64,000 nt of DNA from Escherichia coli O157:H7 (GCF_013167455.1 NZ_CP038328.1), one strand, 5' to 3'. Positions 57,201-63,200 are shown, counted from the first letter of the stretch. A program made the numbers.

Positions 57201-60200
57201 GCAAAACTGACATAAATCTCCAGAGATGTGTTCAGGAGTTAGAAAGATTATTTCTTCTATTCTAGACAAATCCCCCTCTGATTGACAGCATCACTGACCA
57301 ATCGCAAAGATTGCTAAGGCTGCTTATGGCAGGGAGATAAGGATGGTCGATACAGAAATTTGGCTGCGTTTAATGAGTATCAGCAGCTTGTACGGCGATG
57401 ATATGGTCCGTATAGCTCACTGGCTGGCAAGACAGTCGCATATTGATGCGGTTGTATTGCAGCAAACAGGGCTTACATTGCGGCAGGCACAACGCTTTCT
57501 TTCATTTCCGCGGAAGAGTATCGAAAGCTCACTTTGTTGGTTGGAGCAACCCAACCATCATTTAATCCCTGCGGACAGCGAATTTTATCCTCCTCAACTT
57601 CTGGCGACGACAGATTACCCCGGTGCACTGTTTGTTGAAGGAGAACTGCACGCGCTGCATTCATTTCAGCTTGCCGTAGTGGGGAGTCGGGCGCATTCAT
57701 GGTATGGCGAGCGATGGGGACGATTATTTTGCGAAACTCTGGCGAAGCATGGAGTGACAATTACGAGTGGACTGGCGCGTGGAATCGATGGTGTAGCGCA
57801 TAAAGCAGCCTTACAGGTAAATGGCGTCAGCATTGCTGTATTGGGGAATGGACTTAATACCATTCATCCCCGCCGTCATGCCCGACTGGCTGCCAGTCTG
57901 CTTGAACAGGGGGGCGCTCTCGTCTCGGAATTTCCCCTCGATGTTCCACCCCTTGCTTACAATTTCCCACGAAGAAATCGCATTATCAGTGGTCTAAGTA
58001 AAGGTGTACTGGTGGTGGAAGCGGCTTTGCGTAGTGGTTCGCTGGTGACAGCACGTTGTGCGCTTGAGCAGGGGCGAGAAGTTTTTGCCTTGCCAGGTCC
58101 AATAGGGAATCCGGGAAGCGAAGGGCCTCACTGGTTAATAAAACAAGGTGCGATTCTTGTGACGGAACCGGAAGAAATTCTGGAAAACTTGCAATTTGGA
58201 TTGCACTGGTTGCCAGACGCCCCTGAAAATTCATTTTATTCACCAGTGAACCGCCCCGGGAATCCTGGAGACTAAACTCCCTGAGAAAGAGGTAAACAGG
58301 ATGACTAAAAATACACGTTTTTCCCCCGAGGTCCGTCAACGAGCAGTTCGTATGGTTCTGGAAAGTCAGGGCGAATATGACTCACAATGGGCGGCAATTT
58401 GTTCCATTGCCCCAAAGATTGGCTGTACACCAGAGACTCTGCGTGTGTGGGTTCGTCAGCATGAGCGGGATACCGGGAGTGGTGATGGTGGACTCACCAC
58501 CGCTGAACGTCAGCGTCTGAAAGAGCTGGAACGTGAAAATCGTGAACTGCGCCGCAGTAACGATATCCTTCGCCAGGCTTCCGCTTATTTTGCGAAGGCG
58601 GAGTTCGACCGCCTCTGGAAAAAATAATGCCGCTGCTGGATAAGCTGCGTGAGCAGTACGGGGTCGGACCGGTATGCAGTGAACTGCATATTGCCCCGTC
58701 AACGTATTACCACTGTCAGCAACAGCGACATCATCCTGATAAACGCAGTGCCCGTGCTCAGCGCGATGACTGGCTGAAGAGAGAGATACAGCGCGTATAC
58801 GATGAAAATCATCAGGTGTACGGTGTGCGTAAAGTCTGGCGCCAGTTGTTACGCGAAGGTATCAGGGTGGCCAGATGTACAGTGGCGCGCCTCATGGCGG
58901 TTATGGGACTTGCCGGTGTTCTCCGGGGTAAAAAGGTCCGTACTACCGTCAGCCGGAAAGCCGTTTCCGCAGGCGACCGCGTAAACCGTCAGTTCGTGGC
59001 AGAACGTCCTGACCAGCTGTGGGTGGCTGATTTTACTTACGTCAGCACATGGCAGGGCTTCGTCTATGTGGCGTTCATCATTGATGTGTTTGCCGGATGT
59101 ATCGTGGGGTGGCGAGTCTCATCGTCTATGGAAACGACATTCGTGCTGGATGCACTGGAGCAGGCGTTGTGGGCCCGTCGGCCGTCCGGCACAGTCCATC
59201 ACAGTGATAAAGGTTCTCAGTATATATCACTGGCCTATACGGAGCGACTAAAAGAAGCAAAACTGCTGGCATCAACAGGGAGTACAGGTGACTCGTATGA
59301 CAACGCGATGGCGGAGAGCATCAATGGTCTTTACAAAGCGGAGGTAATACACCGTAAGAGCTGGAAAAACCGTGCAGAAGTGGAACTGGCCACACTCACG
59401 TGGGTGGACTGGTATAACAATCGACGATTGCTGGGAAGGCTGGGTCATATCCCTCCGGCAGAAGCAGAAAAAGCTTATTATGCTTCCATCAGAAACGATG
59501 ATCTGGCAGCCTGAGTTCACAGATAAAACACTCTCCAGGAAAACCGGGGCGGTTCACCAGATCAGGAAGACGTGGCATTGCCATTTCCTGAGCTCCTGGC
59601 TAACGTAGGAGATGAGGTAACACCTGTTGACGTCGTCGCTGAACGTGCCGGCCAACCTGTGCCAGAGGTAGTTACTCAACTACTCGAACTGGAGTTAGCA
59701 GGATGGATCGCAGCTGTACCCGGCGGCTATGTCCGATTGAGGAGGGCATGCCATGTTCGACGTACTAATGTATTTGTTTGAAACCTATATTCACACAGAA
59801 GCTGAGTTGCGTGTGGATCAAGACAAACTTGAACAGGATCTTACCGACGCAGGATTTGATCGAGAAGATATCTACAATGCCCTGCTTTGGCTGGAAAAGC
59901 TTGCGGATTATCAGGAAGGACTGGCAGAACCGATGCAACTGGCCTCTGATCCACTCTCCATGCGTATTTATACCCCTGAGGAGTGTGAAAGACTGGATGC
60001 CAGCTGTCGTGGTTTTCTGCTTTTCCTTGAGCAAATTCAGGTGCTTAACCTTGAAACCCGTGAAATGGTGATAGAGCGAGTGCTCGCGCTGGATACCGCA
60101 GAGTTCGACCTGGAAGACCTGAAATGGGTAATCCTGATGGTGTTGTTCAATATTCCGGGCTGCGAAAATGCGTACCAGCAAATGGAAGAATTACTCTTTG

Positions 60201-63200
60201 AAGTGAATGAAGGTATGCTGCATTAATCATTTCTTTAATTCAGCATAAGTTGTTATGGCGAAATCAGCACTGTTCACGGTGCGTAATAATGAGTCCTGCC
60301 CAAAGTGCGGGGCTGAACTGGTTATTCGATCCGGGAAACACGGTCCGTTTCTTGGATGCTCACAGTATCCGGCGTGTGACTACGTCCGTCCTCTGAAATC
60401 TTCAGCGGATGGACATATCGTCAAAGTTCTGGAGGGGCAGGTTTGCCCTGCATGTGGCGCAAATCTGGTATTACGCCAGGGACGCTTTGGTATGTTTATT
60501 GGTTGCATTAACTACCCTGAATGCGAACATACCGAACTTATCGATAAACCGGACGAAACAGCAATTACATGTCCCCAATGCCGGACGGGCCATCTGGTCC
60601 AGCGCCGCTCCCGTTATGGCAAAACATTTCACTCCTGTGATCGCTACCCGGAGTGTCAATTTGCCATTAACTTCAAACCCATAGCTGGAGAATGCCCTGA
60701 GTGTCATTATCCGCTACTCATCGAAAAGAAAACCGCGCAGGGTGTAAAACACTTTTGTGCCAGTAAACAATGTGGAAAGCCGGTTTCGGCGGAATAATAA
60801 CGTGAATAATAACCTGCAAGGAGACGCTATCGCAGCTGCGATAGATGTTCTCAATGAAGAACGTGTCATCGCCTATCCAACGGAAGCCGTTTTCGGTGTT
60901 GGGTGCGATCCTGATAGCGAAACAGCAGTGATGCGACTGTTGGAGTTAAAACAGCGTCCGGTTGATAAGGGGCTGATTTTAATCGCAGCAAATTACGAGC
61001 AGCTTAAACCCTATATTGATGACACCATGTTGACTGACGTGCAGCGTGAAACCATTTTTTCCCGCTGGCCAGGTCCTGTCACCTTTGTCTTTCCCGCGCC
61101 TGCGACAACACCGCGCTGGTTGACGGGCCGCTTTGATTCGCTTGCTGTACGAGTCACCGACCATCCGTTGGTGGTTGCTTTGTGCCAGGCTTATGGTAAA
61201 CCGCTGGTTTCTACCAGTGCCAACTTGAGTGGATTGCCACCTTGTCGAACAGTAGACGAAGTTCGCGCACAATTTGGCGCGGCGTTCCCGGTTGTGCCTG
61301 GTGAAACGGGGGGGCGTTTAAATCCTTCAGAAATCCGCGATGCCCTGACGGGTGAACTGTTTCGACAGGGGTAACATAATGGAAACCTATGCTGTTTTTG
61401 GTAATCCGATAGCCCACAGCAAATCGCCATTCATTCATCAGCAATTTGCTCAGCAACTGAATATTGAACATCCCTATGGGCGCGTGTTGGCACCCATCAA
61501 TGATTTCGTCAACACACTGAACGCTTTCTTTAGTGCTGGTGGTAAAGGTGCGAATGTGACGGTGCCTTTTAAAGAAGAGGCTTTTGCCAGAGCGGATGAG
61601 CTTACTGAACGCGCAGCGTTGGCTGGTGCTGTTAACACCCTCAAGCGGTTAGAAGATGGACGCTTGCTGGGTGACAATACCGATGGTGTAGGCTTGTTAA
61701 GCGATCTGGAACGTCTGTCTTTTATCCGTCCTGGTTTACGTATTCTGCTCATCGGCGCAGGTGGAGCATCTCGCGGCGTACTACTGCCACTTCTTTCCCT
61801 GGACTGTGCGGTGACAATCACTAATCGGACGGTATCCCGAGCGGAAGAGTTGGCTAAATTGTTTGCGCACACTGGCAGTATTCAGGCGTTGGGTATGGAC
61901 GAACTGGAAGGTCATGAGTTTGATCTCATTATTAATGCCACATCCAGTGGCATCAGTGGTGATATTCCGGCGATCCCGTCATCGCTCATTCATCCAGGCA
62001 TTTATTGCTATGACATGTTCTATCAGAAAGGAAAAACTCCTTTTTTGGCATGGTGTGAGCAGCGAGGCTCAAAGCCTACTGCTGATGGTTTAGGAATGCT
62101 GGTGGCACAGGCGGCTCATGCCTTCCTTCTTTGGCATGGCGTTCTGCCTGATGTAGAACCAGTTATAAAGCAATTGCAGGAGGAATTGTCCGCGTGAATC
62201 AGGCCATCCAGTTTCCGGACAGAGAAGAGTGGGTCGAGAATAAAAAATGTGTATGTTTTCCCGCTCTCGTGAATGGCATGCAACTGACATGTGCGATCTC
62301 TGGCGATAGCCTGGCGTATCGCTTTACAGGAGATACGCCAGAGCAGTGGTTAGCGAGTTTTCGTCAGCATCGCTGGGACTTGGAAGAAGAAGCGGAAAAC
62401 TTAATTCAGGAACAAAGTGAAGATGATCAAGGCTGGGTCTGGTTACCCTGATCCAGATATTCGTCCTTCCATTTCACGTAATTATTCGCGGAATAGCGTA
62501 ACCCAGCCTTCTCTTCATCACTTAACGGGCGGATCTGTTTGACGGGACTACCGAGATACAGATATCCGCTCTCCAGCCGTTTATTTTGTGGGACCAGACT
62601 ACCCGCACCAATCATCACATCATCTTCTACTATTGCGCCATCAAGTAAAATTGAGCCCATCCCAACCAAAACTCGATTGCCAATGGTGCAGCCGTGGAGC
62701 ATCACCTTGTGACCAACAGTGACATCTTCGCCAATGGTTAATGGGTTGCCATCTGGGTTGTACGAGGATTTATGAGTGACATGCAACATACTGCCATCCT
62801 GGATATTGGTGCGTGCTCCGATCTGTACATAATGTACATCTCCACGAATCACAACGAGCGGCCAGATCCCCACATCATCAGCCAGACGAACGTCACCAAT
62901 CACGACACTGCTATCGTCGATCATTACGCGCTGACCGATTTGTGGAAAAAGATCGCGGTATGGGCGTAAAACATCAGACATACTTACCTCAGCAATAAAT
63001 GATTTACTAATGACTTTGGGGGCATTATTGGCCTTGTGCAAGTCTTTTAGTATGCAAAAAAGCACCGTTTTGTGTGCGAATGCAGCAAAAAGGGTGAAAA
63101 AACAACAAACAGAAAAAAAGATCAAAAAAGTACTTGTGCAAAAAATTGGGATCCCTATAATGCGCCTCCGTTGAGACGACAACGTGAAACACTTCACAAG

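Follow-up and report, generated by a model that had tools for sequence, protein, structure and literature searches.

The classical polar insertion sequences (IS) are IS1 and IS2 in gal and lac, and their polarity is Rho-dependent. A locus of similar layout is found in a window of 64,000 nucleotides (nt; the whole stretch of DNA analysed here) from Escherichia coli O157:H7 (GCF_013167455.1 NZ_CP038328.1). Here, an IS629/IS1203-type element interrupts dprA, the promoter-proximal gene of a tight same-strand cluster that continues with smg, yrdD, tsaC, aroE and yrdB, and the composition of the antisense strand of the IS fits orientation-dependent polarity. Unlike the classical cases, the dprA locus very probably has its own control region after the IS, the IS is co-directional with the cluster and translated, and polarity is judged from sequence.

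Promoters of essential genes have been located inside dispensable upstream genes (rne in yceQ, lptC in kdsC, and rnc–era), where transposon-directed insertion-site sequencing (TraDIS) displays an orientation bias (PMC5821084). Similarly, the dispensable dprA tolerates insertions whose place and orientation report a functional promoter, but instead of a saturated library there are about 10 natural events with low statistical power, and the promoter is defined by conservation. Outward and hybrid promoters described for IS3-family elements (PMC12095673) offer another comparison: the IS in dprA is of the same family and has its right end beside the genes that would be affected, but its junction with dprA carries no promoter-like signature, and the downstream genes would not need one. 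Finally, as in ribosomal-protein leaders and riboswitches, a long near-invariant stretch with a variable island in the middle precedes the smg Shine–Dalgarno sequence and is kept independently of the reading frame that overlaps it. This stretch differs from known cis-regulatory RNA leaders in that it has no Rfam family, no unusual stability, no more than one compensatory pair, and no known ligand or binding partner.

The noteworthy feature of the locus is this conserved control block, which the IS narrowly missed, and not the insertion, which is an ordinary IS3-family event in a dispensable gene. With a probability of roughly 0.58, conservation and promoter-like sequence suggest that smg through aroE and yrdB have their own promoter and leader within the block, independent of the dprA promoter. 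Serious polarity on smg–tsaC is unlikely.

The conserved block at the dprA–smg junction

The locus was fetched from 80 Enterobacteriaceae species, 76 of which were aligned. The last ~175 nt of dprA have a mean identity to E. coli of 93.8% (minimum 90.9%), compared to 62.2% for dprA nt 1–900, about 81% for smg, 79% for yrdD and 73.5% for tsaC. Third-codon-position entropy is ~0 in several 8-codon windows of the block, whereas dprA averages 1.34. Of all 60-nt windows in the 5.67-kb fmt-to-yrdA locus, the two with the lowest entropy (0.047 and 0.048) fall in the block; the next-best window has 0.179, and the locus mean is 0.668. The block consists of two sub-blocks (59577–59664 and 59689–59777) split by a normally evolving island (59665–59688), where the protein sequence varies as well as the synonymous codons. 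When most of the block is used as a query, all matching E. coli genomes (5,425/5,425) cover at least 80% of it in one place. Pectobacterium, Dickeya, Serratia, Yersinia and Sodalis have the block as well.

The block has outlived dprA in two insect-associated bacteria. In Pantoea sp. Nvir, dprA is a pseudogene: only its last ~115 codons can be recognised, and the part within the block carries in-frame stops and a frameshift. The dprA of a Symbiopectobacterium metagenome-assembled genome (MAG) contains many stops and frameshifts. Both symbionts have kept the block with hardly a letter changed and retain smg, tsaC and aroE, and yrdD is lost or degraded in them. The GC content of the Pantoea sp. 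Nvir block is 53.6%, that of the decayed upstream DNA 36.6%, and that of smg 39.9%. Because the block survives the death of dprA in both symbionts, selection acts on the nucleotides themselves, for a function tied to the downstream genes, and the comparison of these sequences indicates that the conservation owes nothing to DprA protein coding.

Other causes of the conservation were considered and rejected: the block is single-copy, which speaks against a repeated element or gene conversion, and alternative frames and the antisense strand contain only short, non-conserved open reading frames (ORFs). The Symbiopectobacterium MAG displays a 42-nt tandem-repeat expansion (CAGAGGTAGTAGTA...) located exactly in the variable island, with both conserved sub-blocks in place.

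Neither strand of 59400–60400 matched an Rfam 15 family at E ≤ 10, and fold stability is not above that of shuffled sequence (z = −0.53). Among 48 predicted base pairs, 37 never vary and one, located in the variable island, has a compensatory change. The smg start region is predicted by RNAalifold to pair with GAACGU (59641–59646), and changes found in Yersinia break the predicted helix around the smg start codon. The block is absent from Rfam and from the literature searched, although this search was limited and an earlier description is possible. It is conceivable, if rather doubtful, that the block represents an undescribed cis-regulatory leader, more than a promoter and acting at the RNA level or bound by a protein, which lies in the 3′ end of a fast-evolving gene and controls smg, tsaC and aroE in five Enterobacterales families.

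A candidate promoter inside the block

Conservation sets in 1–2 nt before TTGCCA, the −35 hexamer of a candidate sigma-70 promoter (Table 1) located 21 bp downstream of the right end of the IS (59556). This hexamer matches the consensus in five of six positions, and the −10 hexamer, TAACGT, keeps the TAnnnT positions. Neither varies in an alignment of 44 sequences, and most of the variable positions of the sub-block that contains them (sub-block A) are found in the spacer. Fixed hexamers around a varying spacer are what one would expect from a core promoter. The sole exception seen is Dickeya, in which the −10 hexamer reads TACCGT, and both symbionts retain the hexamers and their 17-nt spacing.

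The most likely course of events is as follows. An IS629 copy entered dprA after codon 301 and inactivated a dispensable competence gene. The last ~175 nt of dprA together with the first smg codons would form a control region that is functionally that of smg rather than of dprA. It would comprise, in this order, the element TTGCCA-N17-TAACGT, a predicted start near 59613, a leader of about 140 nt, a strong Shine–Dalgarno sequence and the smg start codon. Since the IS leaves this region whole, transcription of smg through aroE would go on and tsaC would not be starved. Upstream transcription may add to it, as the IS runs in the same direction, is nearly filled with translated ORFs, is G-rich and has no convincing terminators; an internal promoter and read-through are not exclusive and can act together.

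The first-pass annotation of this DNA had argued that the IS would be polar if the genes downstream of dprA are normally transcribed from the dprA promoter, in which case expression would have to come from internal promoters, or from read-through or outward transcription from the IS. The anatomy and the conditional logic of this argument hold, but its premise is probably false: IS-free strains, other genera and symbionts without a functional dprA all have the block and its hexamers. An internal promoter is what the conserved promoter-like element in the dprA 3′ fragment points to, although the only mapped K-12 start for smg in the literature reached lies upstream of the IS. The promoter prediction that had been proposed for the dprA 3′ fragment and the IS right end found the conserved hexamers in the fragment, but with scores at noise level, and nothing convincing at the IS end.

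An invariant part of the block also contains a mini-ORF, ATG-AGG-TAA (59612–59620), which is situated behind AGGAG and about at the predicted transcription start. ANN codons, including the AGG of this mini-ORF, are the class decoded by tRNAs that carry N6-threonylcarbamoyladenosine (t6A; PMC2685093).

Natural insertions in dprA and smg

Complete E. coli genomes were surveyed with composite queries made of the IS-free locus and IS segments in either orientation. The resulting counts are lower bounds, and some insertion events may be missing. At least 10 independent IS629/IS1203-type insertions, including the O157 allele of the window, are found in dprA or smg (Table 1; the F2_81 insertion is mentioned in PMC6985150). 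The IS copy in the window is 94–99.8% identical to the copies in other dprA alleles. All carriers are natural isolates, and the conserved block is spared by every insertion found, in either orientation.

The five reverse-orientation sites all lie within the first 194 nt of dprA (nt 13–194). The RNA made from a reverse IS, i.e. from its antisense strand, would be largely untranslated; it has a C/G ratio of 1.24, and 22 of its 122 windows are C-rich and G-poor. Because natural isolates carry a reverse IS that cuts off the dprA promoter, smg–tsaC expression does not depend solely on that promoter.

Regarding the target, dprA is hit recurrently by IS629/IS1203-type elements only, with at least nine independent events versus none listed for eight other IS families: IS1, IS2, IS3, IS4, IS5, IS30, IS150 and IS186, queried in both orientations, have no insertion in dprA–yrdD among the matches listed. 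Six of the nine dprA events are in the first 194 nt (binomial p 0.0014), and three independent events, representing both orientations, fall within 4 bp at dprA nt 171–174. No target specificity has been reported for IS629 (PMC3271280). Truncated DprA proteins in public assemblies proved unusable as orientation data, as most of them are cut at contig ends or truncated by point mutations.

The same survey revealed insertions further downstream. At least 37 listed genomes, mostly of K-12-type laboratory strains (genomes of the K-12 C600, TG1, CV601 and NEB Turbo type), carry an IS3 copy co-directional with the operon near the aroE 3′ end or yrdB, about 1.43 kb beyond the start of tsaC. A similarly placed IS1 downstream of aroE is found in strain L6-21. 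The dprA search also returned 24 matches on plasmids. One plasmid, NZ_AP043646.1 (strain AST85, 79 kb), contains a fragment that is 97% identical to chromosomal dprA nt 66–563 and is annotated as DNA-processing protein DprA.

Block promoter versus read-through transcription

Several observations weigh against a promoter in the block. The element TTGCCA-N17-TAACGT is the top plus-strand match of the region to a position weight matrix (PWM), but its score of 9.1 bits is within noise (mean shuffle maximum 11.1). In the literature reached, the only smg start mapped in K-12 lies 201 nt upstream of smg (the −201 start), i.e. upstream of the IS, and no 5′ end is mapped near 59613. The conservation exceeds the needs of a core promoter, so that the block might act chiefly as a leader or in translation, with the promoter elsewhere. 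Furthermore, the four insertions located past dprA nt 194 all point the same way as the operon (p 0.012 in a post hoc exact rank-sum test, n = 10), a correlation of orientation with position that is not expected if upstream transcription is irrelevant or if the block promoter is the sole driver. Taken alone, four of four co-directional events give p = 0.06. A consensus scan for plus-strand promoters in 57150–62500 found none. Sequence scoring alone cannot settle the promoter, because nothing exceeds the shuffles.

We consider a second explanation distinctly less probable than a block promoter: the main source of smg–tsaC transcripts would be read-through from the dprA promoter, the −201 start or a promoter at the IS left end, and the block would serve only as a leader or translation-initiation region. 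The −201 start comes from one 454 read of quality class 3, with the −35 element ATTTGGATTGCACTGGT (PMC2760140 Table S1). Its equivalent in the window sits 9 bp upstream of the IS, which separates it from smg in the O157 allele. Transcripts entering the IS from this side would be nearly all translated (the ORF gaps are 25, −1 and 57 nt), with a possible restart at GTG 59572, which is located behind AGGAAG in the dprA 3′ fragment, 57 nt past the orfB stop. The sense RNA of the IS would be a poor Rho substrate (C/G 0.81; one of 122 windows C-rich and G-poor), and the IS has no convincing terminator. The two insertions located past the −201 start, those of O157 and NCTC11121, are co-directional, as are all four beyond dprA nt 194, and every reverse insertion lies upstream of the −201 start and leaves it intact.

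However, two of two co-directional events downstream of the −201 start correspond to p = 0.25, and this start is known from a single read, with hexamers that are poorly conserved across genera (entropies 0.4–1.9); neither symbiont has a recognisable sequence at this position. The Pantoea symbiont has kept smg, tsaC and aroE behind the intact block, although all DNA upstream of the last ~115 dprA codons has decayed past recognition. The onset of conservation exactly at the −35-like hexamer also speaks against read-through as the main source. Expression by read-through from the IS, as the first-pass annotation had it, is kept alive by the co-directional events beyond nt 194, but a promoter internal to the dprA 3′ fragment is rated likelier.

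Nothing on the promoters of smg, yrdD or tsaC was found in the literature searched. A perfect palindrome, TGCAATTTGGATTGCA (58190–58205), centred about 40.5 bp upstream of the −201 start, agrees with the CRP-S consensus in 8 of 10 positions, but the palindrome is not conserved across genera, and matches of such quality occur at chance frequency in the window. A CRP-S site that would make the dprA promoter competence-specific was sought and rejected: the def–dprA spacer has none with ≤2 mismatches, and matches in the window are at chance level.

Transcription could also originate closer to tsaC, from TTGAAG-N18-ATTAAT (with an upstream TG; 60198–60227) in the smg 3′ end or from another promoter inside yrdD. 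We regard this as improbable. The 60198 candidate, with a score of 7.9 bits, overlaps one of two islands of suppressed synonymous change (60179–60226 in the smg 3′ end and 60759–60782 in the yrdD 3′ end), and the IS of NCTC11121 is inserted directly upstream of it and leaves it intact. But the candidates nearer tsaC score at noise level, the islands coincide with the yrdD and tsaC translation-initiation regions, which are constrained anyway, and aroE relies on transcription through tsaC (PMC2685093), i.e. the operon is a single unit there. The third-position entropy of 8-codon windows in these islands, which are directly upstream of the yrdD and tsaC starts, is 0.29–0.32 and 0.12, respectively.

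The IS629 element and its allele

The IS is 1,310 bp long and carries two co-directional ORFs, as the first-pass annotation had described (a 1.3-kb IS in dprA with transposase genes running in the direction of the operon). Its terminal inverted repeats of 25–26 nt (TGAACCGCCCCGGG... on the left and ...CCGGGGCGGTTCA on the right) have 26-nt arms that are 88% complementary, and its ends, TGAACCGCC...GGCGGTTCA, have the TG...CA form of IS3-family termini. The orfB product scores 312.9 bits against NF033516 transpos_IS3 (cut-off 160), and RefSeq annotates an identical copy as an IS3 family transposase with a programmed frameshift and an AL1L pseudoknot. The target-site duplication agrees with the 3–4 bp reported for IS629 (PMC3271280). 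By its length, repeats, duplication and overlapping ORFs with a programmed −1 frameshift, the element belongs to the IS629/IS1203 group of the IS3 family.

Only 3 of 5,426 complete E. coli genomes share the left junction at 100% identity, all of them O157:H7 (ECP19-598, 17B6-2 and G5295). The product of the interrupted gene is 310 residues long: translation enters the IS, adds nine IS-encoded residues and stops at 58275. Since this exact product occurs on 65 contigs in public assemblies, the allele represents a sampled sub-lineage and not one odd isolate. The 2,274 bp flanking the IS are 100% identical to IS-free O157:H7 strains, and thus there is no compensatory change beside the IS.

The right end of the IS might itself supply an outward or hybrid promoter driving smg–tsaC, an idea also raised in the first-pass annotation. 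A −35 box is often present at the right end of IS3-family elements, where it serves the circle-junction promoter, and at least 26% of these elements are estimated to carry complete outward promoters (PMC12095673). In the O157 allele, the terminus TTCA|CC matches the −35 consensus in four of six positions. However, it has no −10 partner at 15–19 bp, the best score in the last 300 bp of the IS or across the junction is 5.9 bits, and the same downstream genes are kept in strains with the opposite IS orientation or no IS. With no promoter-like signature across the junction, outward transcription finds no support in the sequence, and we consider it highly improbable. Moderate TTCAnn hybrids at IS junctions occur in alleles 7784 and NCTC11121 only.

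Gene order and features of the locus

Gene identities were assigned with NCBIfam equivalog models and the RefSeq annotation of the identical record. The plus strand of the window carries dprA, the IS, a dprA remnant, smg, yrdD, tsaC, aroE and yrdB, and the downstream genes are all intact. The interruption follows codon 301 of the 374 dprA codons (start at 57343), leaving 225 bp of dprA sequence 3′ of the IS, which reach into smg. The overlap of smg with the dprA 3′ end and the short gaps between the genes that follow agree with the first-pass annotation. The span 59557–61374 that it had assigned to these genes starts with the first base past the IS, i.e. in the duplicated CCAG, and ends with the tsaC stop codon. 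A mechanically called ORF starting at 60757 does not correspond to the tsaC start, which is annotated as GTG at 60802. From the conserved block to aroE, no convincing plus-strand terminator is predicted. Smg (DUF494, function unknown) has 89–100% protein identity over the 80 Enterobacteriaceae species.

The IS lies 0.5 kb ahead of smg and 1.2 kb ahead of tsaC (yrdC), which is essential in E. coli (PMC2685093), as had been noted at first pass. Cells with PBAD inserted within the first 15 bp of yrdC are viable on rich medium under repressing conditions (PMC2685093), and therefore a low TsaC dose is enough on rich medium. The PBAD insertion is polar on aroE, which needs transcription through tsaC; the two genes are co-transcribed (PMC2685093).

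Table 1. Features of the dprA–yrdB locus (positions in the window) and IS629/IS1203-type insertions of the allele series (positions in the gene; orientation relative to the operon)
Feature	Position	Strand or orientation	Basis or comment
dprA 5′ fragment, codons 1–301	57343–58246	+	NF008007 DprA, profile positions 1–301 of 374
Equivalent of K-12 −201 start	58238 (−35 element 58198–58206, also given as 58194–58210)	+	9 bp upstream of IS left end
Target-site duplication CCAG, 4 bp	58243–58246 (left copy), 59557–59560 (right copy)
IS629/IS1203-type, IS3-family insertion sequence, 1,310 bp	58247–59556	+	NF033516, RefSeq, terminal repeats
Left inverted repeat (IRL)	58247–58271		Terminal inverted repeat of IS
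orfA	58301–58627	+	Co-directional with operon
orfB	58627–59514	+	Co-directional with operon
Right inverted repeat (IRR)	59532–59556		Terminal inverted repeat of IS
dprA 3′ fragment, codons 302–374	59561–59781	+	DprA profile positions 307–374
Nucleotide-ultraconserved block	59577–59777	+	Two sub-blocks
Candidate sigma-70 promoter	59578–59606	+	−35 TTGCCA 59578–59583, 17-nt spacer, −10 TAACGT 59601–59606
smg Shine–Dalgarno sequence GAGGAGGG	59739–59746	+	6–7 nt before ATG 59753; core invariant
smg (DUF494), intact	59753–60226	+	29-nt overlap with dprA 3′ fragment
yrdD (topoisomerase-I zinc-ribbon family), intact	60255–60797	+	28-nt gap after smg
tsaC (L-threonylcarbamoyladenylate synthase), intact	60802–61374	+	GTG start; 4-nt gap after yrdD
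aroE (shikimate dehydrogenase), intact	61379–62197	+	4-nt gap after tsaC
yrdB	62194–62451	+	4-nt overlap with aroE
Insertion in 7784	dprA nt 12–15	Reverse	Duplication ATAC
Insertion in GF66.2, PSS-11, GPEC102	dprA about nt 102–104	Reverse	Duplication TAT
Insertion in 81EVA	dprA nt 171–173	Reverse	Duplication AAA
Insertion in PSS-12	dprA nt 171–174	Reverse	Duplication AAAG
Insertion in 14EC001	dprA about nt 192–194	Reverse	Duplication CTT
Insertion in O145:H28 and O145:NM (three genomes)	dprA nt 172–174	Co-directional	Duplication AAG
Insertion in 582	dprA about nt 470–472	Co-directional	Duplication TAC
Insertion in F2_81	dprA about nt 648–651	Co-directional	Duplication GTGG
Insertion in O157 allele (window)	dprA nt 901–904	Co-directional	Duplication CCAG
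Insertion in NCTC11121	Last 30 nt of smg	Co-directional	Duplication CTT

Biological significance

IS629 hits dprA repeatedly in both pathogenic and commensal E. coli. The spared control region would explain how a gene-killing IS is tolerated upstream of the essential tsaC, the product of which performs the first step of the universal t6A modification of tRNA. The 3′ end of dprA is not ordinary coding sequence but the best-conserved DNA of the locus, and it probably controls the expression of smg and tsaC. Deletions of the whole dprA gene or its replacement with cassettes would take out the block, with possible confounding of dprA and smg phenotypes. Should the block indeed be a regulatory leader, it would provide a direct experimental handle on the control of t6A genes in enterobacteria.

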